The notes under the pieces were generated by a model. That model was given only the letters and a program-made list of their open reading frames with translations. It was not told where the DNA came from and searched no databases. A stretch of 64,000 bases of DNA, taken from the NCBI RefSeq assembly GCF_058153355.1, contig NZ_CM177019.1; one strand, 5' to 3'. The position numbers were made by a program, and so were the translations under genes. Every line of letters begins with the position of its first letter. The first letter of the stretch is position 1. Shown one piece after another: positions 39,599-53,320 of the stretch.

Positions 39599-39712
39599 GC
39601 AAAAGGGGAGCATGCAACGCGCGTTGCATCCCCCTTTTCCCTCGGGTGTTGTACTGATTTTTGAGCGGAATCGCGTTAGCATGGGTCAGGAACCAATCTA
39701 CCTGGGGAACTC

Positions 39713-40525
39713 ATGGCTATCAAACTCATTGCTATCGATATGGATGGCACCCTTCTGCTGCCCGATCACACCATTTCACCCGCTGTTAAAAACGCGATTG
39801 CCGCAGCTCGCGCCCGTGGCGTGAATGTCGTGCTAACGACGGGTCGCCCTTATGCAGGTGTTCACAACTACCTGAAAGAGCTGCATATGGAACAGCCGGG
39901 CGACTACTGCATTACTTATAACGGCGCGCTGGTACAGAAGGCCGCCGATGGTAGCACCGTGGCGCAAACCGCTCTCAGCTATGACGACTACCGTTTCCTG
40001 GAAAAACTCTCTCGCGAAGTCGGTTCTCATTTCCACGCCCTGGACCGCACCACGCTGTACACCGCCAACCGGGATATCAGCCCTTACACCGTGCATGAGT
40101 CGTTTGTGGCGACGATCCCGCTGGTGTTCTGCGAAGCGGAGAAAATGGACCCCAATACCCAGTTCCTGAAAGTGATGATGATTGATGAACCCGCCATCCT
40201 CGACCAGGCTATCGCGCGTATTCCGCAGGAAGTGAAAGAGAAATATACCGTGCTGAAAAGTGCGCCGTACTTCCTCGAAATCCTCGATAAACGCGTTAAC
40301 AAAGGTACAGGTGTGAAATCACTGGCCGATGTGCTGGGCATTAAGCCGGAAGAAATCATGGCGATTGGCGATCAGGAAAACGACATCGCAATGATTGAAT
40401 ATGCAGGTGTTGGTGTGGCAATGGATAACGCTATTCCTTCGGTGAAAGAAGTGGCGAACTTTGTCACCAAATCCAACCTGGAAGATGGCGTGGCGTTTGC
40501 TATTGAGAAGTATGTGCTGAATTAA
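39713..40525 (+). CDS. yidA: Sugar phosphatase, HAD superfamily (Cof-type)
   Basis: 270 aa, MAIKLIAIDMDGTLL... Confidence 0.93.
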   Translation: MAIKLIAIDMDGTLLLPDHTISPAVKNAIAAARARGVNVVLTTGRPYAGVHNYLKELHMEQPGDYCITYNGALVQKAADGSTVAQTALSYDDYRFLEKLSREVGSHFHALDRTTLYTANRDISPYTVHESFVATIPLVFCEAEKMDPNTQFLKVMMIDEPAILDQAIARIPQEVKEKYTVLKSAPYFLEILDKRVNKGTGVKSLADVLGIKPEEIMAIGDQENDIAMIEYAGVGVAMDNAIPSVKEVANFVTKSNLEDGVAFAIEKYVLN

Positions 40526-40568
40526 TCAGTGGGAGGGCAAACTGCATAAATGCGTTTGCCCGCAGCGA

Positions 40569-41342
40569 TTAACAATTTCTGGTCGTGCATAAAATCAGGA
40601 ACTGGAGTGGTGACGTTACTATATCCAGCGTAAGAGTGACTGGTAGCAGTGCATTAGCGAGGCCGCGCGGAACGCCATCAGTTGCTTTGTACTTATAAAA
40701 TCCCACCGTAAAGGGTTGATGGAAAACCATCACGTTTGAGTAATCCGCTTTTTTATTTTTCTGGTGGATAGAGCCTTTCAGGCCGTCAAGTGCCCAGGTA
40801 CAACGCTGGGTATTACAAATAAAACCATATTGTGTCGCCAGTGCTTTATCTTCCTCATTATCCCAGTCGTAATAGAGCGTTATTGAACCAGAAAAATTAG
40901 TATCACTGCTGCTTAAAATAAATTTCGCGTTATCGGAAACGGTGATTCTTTCGCCATGAATTGCCGGATCGTTCAGCATTTTAACCACCTCGCCGCCGCC
41001 CGTGGTCAACAGATAGTCCAACGATTCACCAACAAAAACATAGCCTTTCGTACCGTTACTATCCTCTGCCAGCGATAACCCCTTAATCGAGTCTGACCGC
41101 CATTGCTCGGCATGTGGAGGACTTGCGGTATTGGAAACCAACCCCCAAGTGAGACAACCGGTCAACGCAAATGCCAAAGAACACAAACCGGCAGCCTTAA
41201 AAAATCCCTTAAAATTCAACTTTATGACTAATCCTTTAAACGAGTAGCTAAGCCGTTGAAAGCATACTCTTCTTTCCCTCCTGTTTAGCGCCTGATATCC
41301 CTTTTCAGATTTCTGCCCGACGCATGTCATTTTTTTATGCAT
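40569..41342 (-). CDS. yidX: Putative lipoprotein
   Basis: Lipobox [11 protein letters not shown]-track N-terminus probably over-extended, true start uncertain (about 41220-41330). Confidence 0.7.
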
Positions 41343-41359
41343 TGTTCTTTTTGTGATCT

Positions 41360-41440
41360 AAATTGTAGTACAACAATATAACTTTGTACTACATTACGCA
41401 TACAGCAAACGCGAACGTCATCACGCTGGTACTACAAAAT
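41360..41440. promoter_or_regulatory. Candidate DgoR operator repeats in dgo promoter (three TTGTAnTACAA-like sites)
   Basis: aattgtagtacaa, tttgtactaca, tggtactacaa directly upstream of dgoR. Confidence 0.5.
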
Positions 41441-41502
41441 TGCCGCGTTATGCATCGATCGGGGTAAAGTAGAGAAGTACATACAGAGCACAAGGACTCT
41501 CC

Positions 41503-42192
41503 ATGACTCTCAATAAAACCGATCGCATCGTCATTACGCTGGGCAAACAGATCGTTCACGGCAAATACGTGCCAGGCTCGCCGCTTCCGGCCGAGGCGGA
41601 ACTTTGTGAGGAGTTTGCAACCTCGCGCAACATCATCCGTGAGGTGTTTCGTTCGCTGATGGCGAAGCGGCTGATTGAAATGAAACGTTATCGCGGGGCG
41701 TTTGTGGCACCGCGTAATCAGTGGAATTACCTCGATACTGACGTGCTGCAATGGGTGCTGGAAAACGACTACGACCCACGGCTTATCAGTGCAATGAGCG
41801 AAGTGCGAAATCTGGTGGAACCGGCGATTGCCCGTTGGGCGGCAGAGCGCGCGACTTCCAGCGATCTGGCGCAGATTGAATCAGCGCTGAACGAGATGAT
41901 CGCCAACAATCAGGACCGCGAAGCGTTTAACGAAGCGGATATTCGCTATCACGAGGCGGTACTGCAATCAGTGCATAACCCGGTGTTACAGCAACTTAGC
42001 ATTGCGATTAGTTCATTACAGCGGGCGGTTTTTGAACGAACCTGGATGGGCGATGAGGCCAACATGCCGCAAACGCTCCAGGAACATAAGGCGCTGTTTG
42101 ATGCGATACGGCATCAGGACGGCGATGCGGCAGAGCAGGCGGCGCTTACCATGATCGCCAGCTCGACACGAAGGTTAAAGGAAATCACATGA
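41503..42192 (+). CDS. dgoR: GntR/FadR-family repressor of D-galactonate operon
   Basis: 229 aa, N-terminal wHTH, operon context. Confidence 0.9.
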   Translation: MTLNKTDRIVITLGKQIVHGKYVPGSPLPAEAELCEEFATSRNIIREVFRSLMAKRLIEMKRYRGAFVAPRNQWNYLDTDVLQWVLENDYDPRLISAMSEVRNLVEPAIARWAAERATSSDLAQIESALNEMIANNQDREAFNEADIRYHEAVLQSVHNPVLQQLSIAISSLQRAVFERTWMGDEANMPQTLQEHKALFDAIRHQDGDAAEQAALTMIASSTRRLKEIT

Positions 42193-43067
42193 CAGCTCGC
42201 TACATCGCAATTGACTGGGGATCGACCAATCTGCGCGCCTGGCTTTATCAGGGCGACCACTGCCTGGACAGCAGGCAATCAGAAGCAGGCGTTACGCGTC
42301 TGAACGGAAAATCTCCGGCTGCGGTGTTAGCAGAAGTGACGACCGACTGGTGTGAAGAGAATACGCCAGTGGTGATGGCAGGAATGGTTGGCAGCAATGT
42401 CGGCTGGAAAGTTGCGCCGTATTTATCTGTTCCTGCCCGTTTTTCGTCTATTGGCGAACAATTAACGTCTGTTGGCGACAATATCTGGATTATTCCCGGA
42501 TTATGCGTTTCTCATGATGATAACCACAATGTGATGCGCGGCGAAGAAACACAATTGATCGGCGCGCGTGCTTTGGCTCCTTCCTCTCTTTATGTCATGC
42601 CCGGTACGCATTGCAAATGGGTGCAGGCCGATAGCCAGCAAATCAACGATTTTCGCACCGTGATGACCGGTGAATTACATCATTTACTGTTAAATCATTC
42701 ATTGATTGGCGCAGGTTTACCACCGCAGGAAAACTCTGCCGATGCCTTCGCGGCTGGCCTTGAGCGTGGTCTCAATGCGCCCGCCATATTGCCGCAGCTT
42801 TTTGAAGTTCGTGCCTCGCATGTGCTGGGAACACTTCCCCGTGAACAGGTCAGCGAATTTCTCTCTGGTTTGTTGATTGGCGCAGAGGTCGCCAGTATGC
42901 GCGACTACGTGGTCCATCAACACGCCATCACCCTTGTCGCCGGAACATCGCTGACTGCACGCTACCAGCAAGCCTTTCAGGCGATGGGTTGCGACGTGAC
43001 GGCGGTGGCGGGCGACACGGCATTTCAGGCTGGTATAAGGAGCATCGCTCATGCAGTGGCAAACTAA
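42189..43067 (+). CDS. dgoK: 2-dehydro-3-deoxygalactonokinase
   Basis: 292 aa, overlaps dgoR stop. Confidence 0.9.
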   Translation: MTARYIAIDWGSTNLRAWLYQGDHCLDSRQSEAGVTRLNGKSPAAVLAEVTTDWCEENTPVVMAGMVGSNVGWKVAPYLSVPARFSSIGEQLTSVGDNIWIIPGLCVSHDDNHNVMRGEETQLIGARALAPSSLYVMPGTHCKWVQADSQQINDFRTVMTGELHHLLLNHSLIGAGLPPQENSADAFAAGLERGLNAPAILPQLFEVRASHVLGTLPREQVSEFLSGLLIGAEVASMRDYVVHQHAITLVAGTSLTARYQQAFQAMGCDVTAVAGDTAFQAGIRSIAHAVAN

Positions 43068-43668
43068 ACTCCCGCTGATCGCCATTTTGCGCGGTATTAC
43101 GCCCGACGAGGCGCTGGCGCATGTTGGCGCGGTGATTGACGCTGGGTTCGACGCGGTTGAAATCCCTCTGAATTCCCCACAATGGGAACAAAGCATTCCC
43201 GCCATCGTTGATGCGTATGGCGACAAGGCGTTGATTGGCGCAGGTACGGTACTGAAACCTGAACAGGTCGATGCGCTCGCCAGGATGGGCTGTCAGCTCA
43301 TCGTTACGCCCAATATCCATAGTGAAGTGATCCGCCGCGCGGTGGGCTATGGCATGACCGTTTGCCCCGGCTGCGCGACGGCGACAGAAGCCTTTACCGC
43401 GATCGACGCGGGCGCTCAGGCGCTGAAAATATTCCCGTCATCGGCTTTTGGGCCGCAATACATCAAAGCGTTAAAAGCGGTATTACCGCAGGACATCCCG
43501 GTCTTTGCCGTAGGCGGTGTGACGCCAGAAAACCTGGCGCAGTGGATAGACGCAGGTTGTGCAGGGGCGGGCTTAGGCAGCGATCTCTATCGCGCCGGGC
43601 AGTCCGTAGAACGCACCGCGCAGCAGGCAGCAGCATTTGTTAAGGCGTATCGAGAGGCAGTGCAATGA
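43051..43668 (+). CDS. dgoA: 2-dehydro-3-deoxy-6-phosphogalactonate aldolase
   Basis: 205 aa KDPG-aldolase-like. Confidence 0.9.
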
Positions 43669-44702
43669 AAATCACCAACATTACTACGTATCGTTTACCT
43701 CCCCGCTGGATGTTCCTGAAAATTGAAACTGATGAAGGCGTGGTCGGTTGGGGCGAGCCCGTGATCGAAGGCCGCGCTCGTACGGTGGAAGCGGCAGTTC
43801 ACGAGCTGAGTGACTATTTGATTGGTCAGGATCCATCGCGCATCAATGACTTATGGCAAGTGATGTATCGCGCCGGATTTTATCGTGGCGGTCCGATTCT
43901 GATGAGCGCCATCGCCGGGATCGACCAGGCGTTATGGGATATCAAAGGTAAAGTGCTGAATGCGCCGGTCTGGCAACTGATGGGCGGCCTGGTTCGCGAC
44001 AAAATTAAAGCCTACAGTTGGGTCGGCGGCGATCGTCCGGCGGATGTTATCGACGGCATTAAAACGCTACGCGAAATCGGCTTCGATACCTTCAAACTGA
44101 ACGGTTGTGAAGAACTGGGATTGATTGATAACTCCCGCGCGGTAGATGCGGCGGTCAACACCGTGGCACAAATTCGTGAAGCTTTTGGCAATCAGATTGA
44201 GTTTGGTCTTGATTTCCACGGTCGCGTCAGCGCGCCGATGGCGAAAGTGCTGATTAAAGAACTGGAACCGTATCGCCCTCTGTTTATTGAAGAGCCGGTG
44301 CTGGCGGAACAAGCCGAATACTACCCGAAACTGGCAGCACAAACTCACATCCCACTGGCGGCGGGTGAGCGCATGTTCTCACGTTTCGATTTTAAACGTG
44401 TGCTGGAAGCTGGCGGTATTTCGATTCTGCAACCCGATCTTTCTCACGCAGGTGGTATTACCGAATGCTACAAAATTGCCGGAATGGCGGAAGCCTATGA
44501 CGTGACCCTTGCGCCGCACTGTCCGCTCGGCCCGATTGCACTGGCGGCTTGCCTGCATATCGACTTTGTTTCCTATAACGCGGTACTTCAGGAACAAAGT
44601 ATGGGCATTCATTACAACAAAGGCGCGGAGTTACTCGACTTTGTGAAAAATAAAGAAGACTTCAGCATGGTCGGTAATGCCGATCAGTTAAGGATCAGTT
44701 GA
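43665..44702 (+). pseudogene. dgoD: D-galactonate dehydratase, 3'-truncated by IS4 (last 9 codons read into the IS)
   Basis: Enolase-superfamily protein [31 protein letters not shown]...; ORF is 345 aa versus the ~382 aa I recall; reading frame crosses IS4 end at 44675. Confidence 0.8.
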
Positions 44703-46100
44703 CCGATCCAGTGGCTGTGTAAGAATCCGGAAACGCTCACTTGTTTCCGGATTTTTTTATGCACATTGGACAGGCTCTTGATCTGGTATCCCGTTACGAT
44801 TCTCTGCGTAACCCACTGACTTCTCTGGGGGATTACCTCGACCCCGAACTCATCTCTCGTTGCCTTGCCGAATCAGGTACTGTAACGCTACGCAAGCGCC
44901 GTCTTCCCCTCGAAATGATGGTCTGGTGTATTGTTGGCATGGCGCTTGAGCGTAAAGAACCTCTTCACCAGATTGTGAATCGCCTGGACATCATGCTGCC
45001 GGGCAATCGCCCCTTCGTTGCCCCCAGTGCCGTTATTCAGGCCCGCCAGCGCCTGGGAAGTGAGGCTGTCCGCCGCGTGTTCACGAAAACAGCGCAGCTC
45101 TGGCATAACGCCACGCCGCATCCGCACTGGTGCGGCCTGACCCTGCTGGCCATCGATGGTGTGTTCTGGCGCACACCGGATACACCAGAGAACGATGCAG
45201 CCTTCCCCCGCCAGACACATGCCGGGAACCCGGCGCTCTACCCGCAGGTCAAAATGGTCTGCCAGATGGAACTGACCAGCCATCTGCTGACGGCTGCAGC
45301 CTTCGGCACGATGAAGAACAGCGAAAATGAGCTTGCTGAGCAACTTATAGAACAAACCGGCGATAACACTCTGACGTTAATGGATAAAGGTTATTACTCA
45401 CTGGGACTGTTAAATGCCTGGAGCCTGGCGGGAGAACACCGCCACTGGATGATACCTCTCAGAAAGGGAGCGCAATATGAAGAGATCAGAAAACTGGGTA
45501 AAGGCGATCATCTGGTGAAGCTGAAAACCAGCCCGCAGGCACGAAAAAAGTGGCCGGGACTGGGAAATGAAGTGACAGCCCGCCTGCTGACCGTGACGCG
45601 CAAAGGAAAAGTCTGCCATCTGCTGACGTCGATGACGGACGCCATGCGCTTCCCCGGAGGAGAAATGGCGGATCTGTACAGTCATCGCTGGGAAATCGAA
45701 CTGGGATACAGGGAGATAAAACAGACGATGCAACTGAGCAGGCTGACGCTGAGAAGTAAAAAGCCGGAGCTTGTGGAGCAAGAGCTGTGGGGTGTCTTAC
45801 TGGCTTATAATCTGGTGAGATATCAGATGATTAAAATGGCGGAACATCTGAAAGGTTACTGGCCGAATCAACTGAGTTTCTCAGAATCATGCGGAATGGT
45901 GATGAGAATGCTGATGACATTGCAGGGCGCTTCACCGGGACGTATACCGGAGCTGATGCGCGATCTTGCAAGTATGGGACAACTTGTGAAATTACCGACA
46001 AGAAGGGAAAGGGCCTTCCCGAGAGTGGTAAAGGAGAGGCCCTGGAAATACCCCACAGCCCCGAAAAAGAGCCAGTCAGTTGCTTAACTGACTGGCATTA
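44675..46100 (+). mobile_element. IS4 insertion sequence, copy 2 (1426 bp), no target-site duplication
   Basis: Identical to 21-1446 in opposite orientation; flanks tcagcatggtcgg / gaccgatttggcc do not match. Confidence 0.85.
44759..46087 (+). CDS. insG: IS4 transposase
   Basis: Same protein as copy 1. Confidence 0.85.
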
Positions 46101-46134
46101 GACCGATTTGGCCCCGTTCTATTTTTTAGTGAAC

Positions 46135-48600
<2,466 letters not shown>

Positions 48601-50034
48601 CTATTTCAAGCGATAGTAAAGCTCACGGTACGACTTCGCCGCGACCTGCCAGCTAAAATCCATTGCCATAGCCTGACGTTGCACAAACCGCCACAGTGAA
48701 GGACGGGACCACAGTACAAAAGCACGTCGAATAGCCCGTAACAGCGACCAGGCATTACTATCTTCAAAGACAAACCCACTGGCGACGCCATCTGCAAGGT
48801 TCTCAAGAGAACAGTCAGAAACCGTATCAGCAAGCCCACCGGTGCGCCGCACTAACGGCAGCGTACCGTACTTCAATCCATAAAGTTGCGTTAAGCCGCA
48901 CGGTTCAAAACGGCTGGGCACCAGAATGACGTCCGCGCCGCCCATAATGCGATGCGAAAATGCTTCGTGATAGCCAATCTGAACGCCCACTTGTCCGGGA
49001 TATTCCGCGGCCGCGGCAAGGAAACCTTCCTGCAACACCGGATCACCCGCGCCGAGTAGCGCCAGCTGTCCGCCCTGCTCCAGAAGGCCTGGTAAGGCTT
49101 CCAGCACCAGGTCGAGACCTTTCTGGCTGGTCAGACGGCTCACCACTGCAAAAAGCGGCACTTTATCGTCAACCTTAAGCCCCATTGCGATTTGTAACTG
49201 GCGCTTATTCTCCGCTTTATCTTCCAATGTATCGCGGGTGTAACGCGAGGCCAACAGTAAGTCCGTCTCTGGACTCCAGATTTTTTCGTCCACGCCGTTT
49301 AGTACGCCGGAAAGACGCCCTTCACGGTGACGCTGCTGCAACAGACCTTCCATACCGTAGGCAAACTGCGGTTCGGTGATCTCGCGAGCGTAGGTCGGGC
49401 TGACCGCCGTAATATGATCGGCATAGTACAGACCAGCCTTCAGGAAAGAGATTTGTCCGTTGAATTCCAGCCCATGAATATTAAAGAATGACCATGGCAA
49501 TTGAATGTCATTCATGTGATGTGCATAAAACATGCCTTGATAGGCCAGGTTGTGCACAGTAAACACCGACTTCGCCGGACGCCCGCGCGCCGCCAGATAC
49601 GCAGGCGCAAGGCCCGCATGCCAGTCGTGCGCATGCACCACATCAGGGCGCCAGAATGGGTCAAGCCCGCTGGCCATTTCTGCCCCAACCCACCCAAGCA
49701 GCGCAAAACGCAATACGTTGTCAGTGTAGGCAAATAAGTTGGTATCGTGATACGGGCTTCCCGGACGATCATAGAGATGCGGCGCGTCAATCAGGTAAAT
49801 GCCAACCCCGTTGTAATGGCCGAACAACAGCGTGATATGCCCTGCGAAGGTATCACGGCGAGATACCACCTGCGCATCGGTTACGCCACGGCGAATATCG
49901 GGAAATGCAGGCAACAGTACGCGAGCGTCAACGCCGTCTGCGATTTGTGCTGCGGGTAATGCCCCAATAACATCAGCCAGACCGCCGGTTTTAAGCAGCG
50001 GGAACATCTCTGAACATACATGTAAAACCTGCAT
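48601..50034 (-). CDS. glgA: Glycogen synthase
   Basis: 477 aa, [22 protein letters not shown]... Confidence 0.97.
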
Positions 50035-51329
50035 TATCGCTCCTGTTTATGCCCTAACTTCCGTAGCATTTCGCGCGTTACCAGCACGATGCCTTCTTCT
50101 GAACGATAGAAACGACGTGCATCTTCCTCTGCGTTTTCACCAATCACCATGCCTTCCGGAATAACACAAGCACGATCAATGACGCAGCGGCGCAGACGGC
50201 ACGAGCGACCTACCCATACTTCCGGTAACAATACGGCGGAATCAATGTTGCAGAATGAATTCACGCGAACGCGCGAGAACAGAACGGACTGCACCACCAC
50301 CGAACCGGAGATCACACAACCGCCGGAAACCAGTGAGTTAAGGGTCATCCCGTGGCTACCGGAGCGATCTTGCACGAATTTCGCTGGCGGTAATGATTCA
50401 TTGTAGGTGCGAATTGGCCAATTGCGATCGTACATATCCAGTTCCGGCACCACTGATGCCAGATCGAGGTTCGCTTTCCAGTAAGCTTCAAGCGTACCCA
50501 CATCGCGCCAGTACGGCTCGGCATCCGGGTCGGATTGTACGCAAGAGAGCGGGAACGGGTGCGCATAGGCCAGACCGGCTTCGGTGATTTTGGGAATCAA
50601 ATCTTTACCAAAGTCGTGGCTGGAGTTCTCATCGCGATCATCTTCTTCCAGCAGTTCATACAGATAGTCGGCGTCAAAGACGTAGATACCCATGCTCGCC
50701 AGAGATTTGCTCGGGTCGTTCGGCATTGACGGCGGGTTAGCGGGTTTTTCAACGAATTCGATAATTTTATCGTTCTCATCAACCGCCATAACGCCAAATG
50801 CGGAGGCTTCTTCAATCGGTACAGGCATACAAGCGACGGTGCAACGTGCGCCTTTTTCGACGTGGTCGATAAGCATACGCGAGTAGTCTTGCTTGTAGAT
50901 ATGGTCGCCCGCCAGGATCACCACATATTCCGCTTTGTAACGGCGAATAATGTCGAGGTTTTGCGTGACCGCATCTGCGGTGCCGCGATACCAGTTTTCC
51001 CCTTTCATTCTCTGCTGCGCTGGCAACAGATCGACAAACTCGTTCATTTCTTCATTGAAGAATGACCAGCCGCGCTGAATGTGCTGCACCAGAGTATGGG
51101 ACTGGTACTGGGTGATCACGCCCATACGACGGATCCCGGAGTTGATGCAGTTAGACAGTGCAAAGTCGATAATGCGGAACTTACCGCCGAAGTGTACGGC
51201 CGGTTTTGCTCGCTTATTGGTTAAATCCTTCAGGCGGGTACCACGTCCTCCCGCCAGTATCAGGGCAACAGATTTCAATGGCAGCTGGCGCGCCAACATT
51301 AAGTGATCGTTCTTCTCTAAACTAACCAT
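50034..51329 (-). CDS. glgC: Glucose-1-phosphate adenylyltransferase
   Basis: [33 protein letters not shown]...; ORF-track start 51365 is over-extended. Confidence 0.95.
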
Positions 51330-51346
51330 GACTAACTCCTTTTTTA

Positions 51347-53320
51347 TCATCTCTGGAACACACACAATCCGTGTGCAGGTCCCTGCCAGACAGCCGTAAT
51401 CACTGGGTTATCCTCTCCAGCGAATGGGGGAATGGCGTGCCACTCCCCAGCAGGTAAAACAATCTCTGTTACCTCAAGCGTGGCGTTAATTGCGATCAAA
51501 AAGCGATCCGAGAGCAGAATTTGCAGCTGTTTCGGCCCGTTTTGCCACTCATCCGTGCTTAAAGGTTGAGCATATCGATTTAGCCAACGGACATTGCCGT
51601 CGCCTTCTTCCCACCAGCGATTCTCCACCAAAGCGGGAATGCGCTTGCGCAGATGGATTAACGCAGCGGTAAATGCGGTTAAACCACTGCTTGCCTGCGA
51701 CCAGTCCAACCAGGTTAATTGATTATCCTGACAGTAGGCATTGTTATTGCCATGCTGGCTATGACCATGTTCGTCACCGGCCAGTAACATCGGCGTACCC
51801 TGGGAGAGCAACAACGTTGTTAACAGGGCGTGAATGCTGTCGCGCCGCCGTTCAACCAGGTCAAGAGTACCGCCTAATCCTTCTTTACCATGATTGTTAC
51901 TGTAATTGTTGTTGGTCCCGTCGCGATTTTCTTCTCCGTTTGCTTCATTGTGTTTATGGTTGAAGCAAACGCAGTCGCGAAGCGTAAAACCGTCATGCGC
52001 GGTGACGAGATTAATCGCAGCACTCGGCAGACGACCATTACGTTTAAAAACATCGCTGGAGGCAGCAAAACGCCCGGCAAACGCCCCCAGAGGCAAATCA
52101 TAATGCAGCCAGAAACGACGGGCAGCATCACGGAAATGATCGTTCCACTCAGCAAACAGTGGCGGGAAATTTCCCACCTGATAACCACCAGGCGCAATAT
52201 CCCACGGTTCGGCAATTAACTTCACCTGCGAGAGCACCGGGCAGTTCTGAATTGCGGTAAACAACGGAGCATCCTGACGGAACTCAGGCGTACGGCCCAT
52301 GACTGCCGCCAGATCAAAACGGAAACCATCGACGTGGCAGGTTTCTACCCAATAACGCAGGCAGGCGCTGGCATAATCCACCACCGCCGGATGACTCAAA
52401 TTAAGCGTGTTGCCACAGCCTGTCCAATTGTGATAATCACCGTCTTCTCTTATCCAATAATAGCTACGGTTGTCGATCCCACGCAGAGAGAATAACGGAC
52501 CGTCGAGGTCCAGTTCCGCACTATGGTTAAGCACGATATCAAGAATGACTTCGATACCCGCTTTATGCAGTGCTTTGATTGCATCGCGAAACTCATTCAG
52601 CGCCGTTTCTGGCGAGCAGGCATACGCCGGATGCAGCGCAAACATCGCTACCGGGTTATAGCCCCAGTAGTTACTTAACCCCATACGTTGCAGGCGTGGT
52701 TCGCTGGCAAATTGTGCCACCGGCAGCAACTCCAGCGCAGTAATGCCCAACTGTTTCAAATAGTTGATCATCACCGGATGCCCCAGGGCTTTATAAGTGC
52801 CGCGGATATCGACCGGGATCTCCGGGTGCAGATACGTTAATCCTTTGACATGGGCTTCATAAATGATAGTGCTGCCCCACGGCGTGCGCGGCGGGGCATC
52901 ATCCTCCCAGTCATAGTGATCAACCACCACTACACATTTCGGCGCAATGGCGGCGTTGTCGCGATAGTCAGGTTCATTATGACCTGCGTGCAGCAGCGGG
53001 TTATCTTTAAACTCCCCGTCAATTTGCCGCGCGCAAGGATCAATCAACAACTTCGCCGGGTTAAAGCGATGTCCCTCGGCGGGTCGCCAGGGGCCATGAA
53101 CGCGATAACCATAACGCAAACCCGGACGCGCATCCGGCAGATAACCGTGCCAAATGTCGCCACTGTGCCCTGGCAAGTCATAGCGATGTTCCTGGCCATT
53201 GGCGTCAAAGATACACAGTTCTACCCGCTCGGCATGAGCGGAGAAAAGTGTGAAGTTGACGCCCTGACCGTCGTAATGCGCGCCGAGGGGTGCGGGTTTG
53301 CCAATGGCGAGTTGTGTCAT
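51347..53320 (-). CDS. glgX: Glycogen debranching enzyme
   Basis: 657 aa GH13. Confidence 0.95.

Follow-up and report, generated by a model that had tools for sequence, protein, structure and literature searches.

The 64,000-nucleotide stretch analysed here (contig NZ_CM177019.1 of assembly GCF_058153355.1, in the following called the window) carries two copies of the insertion sequence IS4, and the second of them (copy 2) joins the interior of dgoD to the region downstream of glgP. Copy 2 most likely marks one end of an inversion that spans roughly 300-400 kb. The junction is best explained by recombination between two IS4 copies in inverted orientation, a reading that we regard as probable. 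A large inversion of this origin had been proposed in an earlier reading of the sequence alone (the sequence-only reading). It is supported here by flanks that derive from distant, inverted loci, by the nature of both flanks as halves of IS4 insertion sites and by a switch in strand composition at the element, so that the inversion is strongly indicated, though not proven.

The element was delimited by direct reading of the sequence together with a repeat search. Copy 2 is a complete IS4 of 1426 bp, which is 100% identical to copy 1 and lies in inverted orientation to it, and which differs from the annotated 1426-bp IS4 of K-12 MG1655 by three substitutions (1423/1426 identical). The repeat search returned an arm of 1427 nt, the extra flanking base being a chance match. 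The 18-bp terminal inverted repeats are imperfect (16/18 matching), and the single transposase open reading frame (ORF) is intact, with matches to the Pfam domains Nterm_IS4 (PF13006, 3.1e-33) and DDE_Tnp_1 (PF01609, 9e-32). Length, inverted repeats, the single DDE transposase ORF and a dyad-symmetric target are all shared with the K-12 element (insG; IS4 family, IS4 subgroup in ISfinder) and, judged by its sequence, copy 2 is IS4 itself, of the same family and subgroup.

In difference to the K-12 element, copy 2 has no flanking direct repeat, and its flanks come from two separate insertion sites. The target duplication of 11-13 bp that is expected to flank IS4 is present at copy 1 (13 bp, ctgccgacgggcg at 8-20 and again at 1447-1459, 13/13 matching) and at the K-12 IS4 (12 bp), but it is missing at copy 2, where the left flank tcagcatggtcgg (44662-44674, named T1) and the right flank gaccgatttggcc (46101-46113, named T2) are unrelated in either orientation. 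The clean duplication at copy 1 and its absence at copy 2 are thus as the sequence-only reading had described them. That reading had also considered that matching duplications might be found at copy 2 after the ends of the element were re-defined. Such a shift was rejected, since the ends are fixed by the identity with copy 1, by the identity with the K-12 IS4 and by the terminal inverted repeats. The missing duplication is the expected by-product of an exchange of flanks, and the identity of the element as IS4 is not in doubt.

To place both flanks, the window was aligned by local BLAST against two stretches of K-12. Window positions 28475-44674 match K-12 from 3,888,190 down to 3,871,989 in reversed orientation, whereas positions 46107-63633 match K-12 from 3,564,106 up to 3,581,628 in forward orientation. 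The breakpoints in K-12 (3,871,989 and 3,564,106) are therefore 307.9 kb apart and in inverted relation, which bears out the distance of about 300 kb and the reversal on the left side only that had been put forward earlier. The two loci are joined high side to high side of their K-12 positions. Only an inversion-type exchange yields such a join, as a deletion would bring a low side to a high side, and a deletion between direct IS4 copies was rejected because the flanks stand in an inverted and not in a deleted relation to K-12. The lineage of the window is about 4% diverged from K-12 at the dgo and glg loci. Among complete Escherichia coli genomes, the closest share 98.5-98.9% identity with the window at the dgo flank and 99.5-99.6% at the glg flank. 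In all eight relatives listed for both flanks (EC42405, 2020CK-00188, MFDS1019527, MFDS1022581, 2017-02-2CC, E400634, E500002 and E600003) the two flanks are found on opposite strands, 340-415 kb apart. Since every one of them keeps this opposite-strand relation, the K-12-like arrangement is ancestral and that of the window is derived.

On the left side, copy 2 lies inside dgoD, as the sequence-only reading had stated, and truncates the gene after codon 337 of 382. The dgoD reading frame enters IS4 for eight codons up to a stop at 44702, which results in a fusion ORF at 43665-44702. In relatives with an uninterrupted dgoD the 13-mer tcagcatggtcgg forms the exact centre of the dyad AAAGAAG-N19-CTTCTTT. 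Because T1 is dyad-centred like other IS4 targets, the dgoD breakpoint looks like a transposition site rather than a random endpoint of a deletion or of illegitimate recombination.

The same junction is present in draft assemblies of the lineage. The DgoK variant of the window is specific for this lineage and is found on only five contigs (Logan SRR31441161 and SRR28786219; NCBI drafts GCA_015332025.1 and GCA_043012465.1). All four short-read assemblies of the lineage, which are independent of one another, reproduce the dgoD-IS4 junction and match over 5-11 kb with 0-1 mismatch. One lineage draft contig is 43,222 bp long, compared to an interval of 43,228 bp between IS4 copies 1 and 2 in the window, and the draft contig end at the dgoD side corresponds to window position 44671. 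Among 5,426 complete RefSeq E. coli genomes the dgoD-IS4 junction was found in none, and the DgoD-IS4 fusion protein is recorded only from Logan short-read assemblies. The NCBI draft contigs of the lineage end exactly 10 nt into each of the 13-nt flanks T1 and T2, 3 nt short of IS4, while the Logan contigs extend 28 nt into IS4; the offset in the NCBI drafts is equal at T1 and T2 and is probably due to the behaviour of the assembler.

On the right side, 34 nt separate copy 2 from the stop codon of glgP at 46135 on the other strand, the distance given in the sequence-only reading. IS4 is found as a simple insertion at the identical position of the glgP terminator, and in the same orientation, in 18 of the 5,426 complete E. 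coli genomes. These genomes (e.g., N25, C11, XH988 and NCTC10444) share position and orientation relative to glgP with the window but differ at the other flank: the simple insertions border there on glpD/yzgL or the PstS-like side and show a matching duplication of 11-12 bp, and the window borders on dgoD. In strain N25, IS4 lies between glpD/yzgL and glgP with gaccctttggcc on both sides (12 bp), and C11 carries the 11-bp duplication gaccctttggc; at least two independent insertions are represented here. The relatives closest to the window on the glg side (99.5% identical), with EC42405 as the nearest, have an empty site with a single gaccgatttggcc.

The counterpart of T2 was found in the lineage of the window itself. 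A look-up of a PstS-like protein from EC42405 retrieved the 92-kb contig DAXYJU010000015.1 (GCA_043012465.1), which carries rtcR-glpR-glpG-glpE-glpD and a PstS-like gene and ends with ...GGCGAAAAAAAACGGGACCGATTTG. This glpD-side contig end reads gaccgatttg, the first 10 nt of T2. Together with the copy on the glgP side, T2 is thus present on both sides in the lineage, which is the trace that a plain IS4 insertion into the terminator of glgP leaves. For the 502-aa PstS-like protein of EC42405 no record was obtained on look-up. The glg proteins were rejected as lineage markers, as they are identical to common variants. In the lineage of the window, the gene for the PstS-like protein (502 aa in relatives), which lies between glpD and the terminator of glgP, has a 969-bp internal deletion compared to the relatives, and in DAXYJU010000015.1 the deletion junction shows a 10-bp overlap (microhomology).

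The strand composition changes at copy 2 as well. In 4-kb windows the GC skew is at least -0.003, and mostly +0.02 to +0.10, from the start of the window to about 46 kb, and it is -0.022 to -0.070 from 46 kb to the end. The sign switches at IS4 copy 2, where values of about +0.04 give way to about -0.05 between 44 and 46 kb. The left part (lpf, pst, tna, dnaA, gyrB, dgo) has leading-strand composition and, by K-12 coordinates, leads away from oriC, whereas the composition of the glg side is that of a lagging strand, even though replication now runs through both parts in one direction. Such a composition is to be expected in the first kilobases of a block that has recently been inverted.

These observations fit the following course of events. 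In an ancestor of the lineage, IS4 would have inserted into the glgP terminator hairpin, a recurrent IS4 target, and a separate IS4 would have inserted in the opposite chromosomal orientation into the dyad-symmetric site at dgoD codons 334-338, each insertion making its own duplication of 11-13 bp (T2 at glgP, T1 at dgoD). Homologous recombination of the RecA type between these two copies, which were identical, 1.4 kb long and inverted to each other, would then have turned round the intervening DNA of roughly 300-400 kb and exchanged the inner flanks, giving dgoD5'-T1-IS4-T2-glgP, which is the junction in the window. This also explains why copy 2 stands without a target duplication. The predicted partner is glpD side-T2-IS4-T1-dgoD3'-dgoT, with the sequence ...GGCGAAAAAAAACGG[GACCGATTTGGCC]TAATGCCGATCAG...(IS4)...CTGACTGGCATTA[TCAGCATGGTCGG]CGGCTTCTTTAAACC..., in which AACGG would precede GACCGATTTGGCC; next would come the final 45 codons of dgoD and, after these, dgoT.

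IS-mediated inversions are familiar from Shigella and from E. coli evolved in the laboratory, and the event described here is probably an instance of this well-known class with a textbook mechanism. Homologous recombination between inverted IS copies is the standard mechanism of such inversions, as stated for E. coli (PMC5009759). With inversions of this type the window has in common an IS without duplication, flanks of one element that stem from two distant loci in inverted relative orientation (by comparison with K-12 and the eight relatives), flanks that are each half of an IS4 target (T1 by its dyad centring, T2 by the glpD-side contig end and the simple insertions) and a break in GC skew at the breakpoint. 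It differs from them in that only one breakpoint is in view, and in that the event would lie within one replichore beside dnaA/oriC and not symmetrically about the origin or the terminus.

Several points weigh against the inversion. Replichore-internal inversions of such a size are usually counter-selected. The two IS4 copies of the window are identical, so that no signature of a hybrid copy can be read. The dgoD3' half-site (IS4 right end-T1-dgoD3'), and with it the second copy of T1, was not retrieved from the lineage drafts. Look-ups with the C-terminal remnant of DgoD (48 aa) were swamped by hundreds of frameshifted dgoD genes in noisy assemblies, and those with DgoT led to variants other than that of the lineage or to variants too common (16,502 blocks) to reach the lineage contig. 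An apparent dgoD3' hit starting at CATGGTCGG was discarded, as it is an adapter-bearing fragment that probably begins at a CATG restriction site and not an IS junction. Exact-pattern scans of genome_contigs and metagenome_contigs gave 0 matches to the predicted reciprocal junction, a result that is uninformative, since genome_contigs likewise lacks the junction of the window itself and the collections scanned did not include the source genome. Finally, the join across the 1.4-kb repeat depends on the assembly as given, whose correctness we infer.

This last point leads to the main rival explanation, namely that the genome carries two simple insertions, dgoD::IS4 and glgP-terminator::IS4, and that the wrong flanks were joined across the identical 1.4-kb repeat during assembly. 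The lineage assemblies in the collections are short-read only and their contigs stop at IS4. Such drafts fit an inversion and two simple insertions equally, because all four half-junctions are the same in both configurations. The same point has been made for inversions of this kind, which leave no new junction in short-read data (PMC5009759). However, the 64-kb window runs unbroken through two identical IS4 copies, which suggests long-read or finished data, where a 1.4-kb repeat would be easily spanned. We consider an assembly chimera unlikely.

A real rearrangement with a more complex history, in which successive inversions or translocations among several IS4 copies left a partner junction that is not the simple reciprocal, appears slightly less probable still. 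An IS4-containing query matches up to 26 places per E. coli genome, at least two IS4 copies, and probably three or more, are present in the lineage, and only one junction is visible. However, the junction and the T2 contig end on the glpD side are as a single exchange predicts, and parsimony favours one event. Very improbable is a one-step inversion coupled to transposition, in which a resident IS4 attacks the other site by replicative intramolecular transposition and so produces the second copy and the inversion together. It would leave ends of indistinguishable structure, with T1 and T2 each split between two junctions, but IS4-family transposases of the IS10 and IS50 kind act by non-replicative cut-and-paste. 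IS4 is grouped with IS10 and IS50 (PMC2266710). Neither a composite transposon (copy 1, 43 kb and copy 2) nor an inversion between copies 1 and 2 can be upheld, as the two outer flanks are not alike and copy 1 is bounded by a perfect duplication of its own.

The recombination between IS4 copies at dgoD and glgP is thus preferred, and its two proposed insertion sites were compared with the targets of copy 1 and of the K-12 IS4. In all four sites examined the flank or duplication is centred, to within 1 nt, on a dyad whose left arm is rich in A and whose right arm is rich in T. This geometry agrees with the older IS4 target rule AAA-N20-TTT. Two of the four targets (glmS and glgP) are strong terminator hairpins. 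Copy 1 itself sits in the Rho-independent terminator of glmS, in the attTn7 neighbourhood, with the 13-bp duplication ctgccgacgggcg.

IS4 is found at the same position and in the same orientation in the glmS terminator of four other complete E. coli genomes. In these the lpfA flank is far more diverged than IS4 (about 90% identity across IS4 plus flank). Strain 21AR0303 (one junction read) has IS4 36 bp after the glmS stop, with a duplication that differs by one base, ctgccgaccggcg. The diverged lpfA flank and the one-base difference in the duplication indicate that the IS4 insertions in the glmS terminator are independent events at a hot spot. It is conceivable, and we put it forward only tentatively, that IS4 prefers sites of dyad symmetry, for the most part terminator hairpins, and has few hot spots on the chromosome. 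Hot spots such as the glmS and glgP terminators, being hit at the same nucleotide in unrelated lineages, would then pre-load identical recombination substrates, so that the same large inversions might be recurrent and in principle predictable or reversible.

The junction makes dgoD an inactive pseudogene and separates dgoT from its operon, and the use of D-galactonate is probably lost. If the inversion is true, a block of about 350 kb beside the origin region, including the glg operon, would be transcribed head-on to replication with its strand bias reversed. Analyses of the source genome that are based on synteny or skew should expect a discontinuity at this junction. The value of the finding lies mostly in annotation and strain biology, with clear evidence of repeated IS4 insertion into the same terminator hairpins in independent lineages as a by-product.

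Table 1. Features of the IS4 junction in the window and folding of the four IS4 targets (fold, folding energy; z, z-score).
Feature	Position	Strand	Basis or value
dgoD, 5' 88% (codons 1-337 of 382), truncated by IS4	43665..44674	+	ORF list, K-12 alignment, relatives
T1, 13 nt tcagcatggtcgg, final dgoD bases before IS4	44662..44674	+	putatively one copy of the dgoD::IS4 target duplication
IS4 copy 2, complete 1426-bp element, probable rearrangement junction	44675..46100	+	100% identity to copy 1; 3/1426 differences from K-12 IS4
IS4 copy 2, left terminal inverted repeat, TAATGCCGATCAGTTAAG	44675..44692	+	16/18 vs. reverse complement of right end
IS4 copy 2, right terminal inverted repeat	46083..46100	+	
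IS4 transposase ORF, intact	44741..46087	+	448 aa with TTG start, 442 aa with the ATG start of K-12 insG; Pfam
T2, 13 nt gaccgatttggcc, upper part of glgP terminator hairpin	46101..46113	+	one copy of the glgP-terminator::IS4 target duplication
glgP, complete; Rho-independent terminator is the IS4 target	46135..48582	-	terminator fold -17.6 kcal/mol, z -4.2
Start of segment with strand composition inverted relative to replication direction	46101..64000	.	GC skew ~-0.05 vs. ~+0.04 on the left; collinear with K-12 3,564,106-3,585,401
IS4 copy 1, simple insertion in glmS terminator, outside the rearrangement	21..1446	-	13-bp duplication 8-20/1447-1459
Target: glmS terminator (copy 1)			fold -20.9 kcal/mol, z -5.0
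Target: glgP terminator			fold -17.6 kcal/mol, z -4.2
Target: internal dgoD site			fold -7.7 kcal/mol, z -0.5
Target: resident IS4 of K-12			fold -8.1 kcal/mol, z -1.6

Apart from the junction, the window differs from K-12 at several places. A chaperone-usher fimbrial operon (major subunit, PapD-like chaperone, usher and second fimbrial subunit) lies between glmS and pstS at 1729-6710; it is annotated in relatives as long polar fimbriae lpf-O113 and is not present in K-12. In the pstA-pstB intergenic region a small gap in the K-12 alignment was observed (9923-9930, with K-12 3,908,466-3,908,551 unaligned), and a 34.8-kb Logan contig of SRR31441161 likewise has an end close to it, which suggests a repeat such as a repetitive extragenic palindrome or bacterial interspersed mosaic element (REP/BIME). 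A 5.2-kb island of about 31-39% G+C (11524-16752) replaces the 9.4 kb of bglGFBH-yieKL-cbrBC in K-12 and encodes a weak pentapeptide-repeat ORF (396 aa) as well as ORFs of 815 and 212 aa without Pfam match. Between tnaC and mnmE a 2.6-kb insert relative to K-12 (25848-28474) carries a 492-aa ShET2-enterotoxin-like protein (PF07906, 2.8e-50) and a 221-aa ORF without Pfam match. At 63633-63680 the K-12 segment yhhZ-yrhA::IS1E-yrhD-yrhB (about 3.4 kb, 3,581,629-3,585,080) is absent, and yhhY is followed almost directly by ggt.

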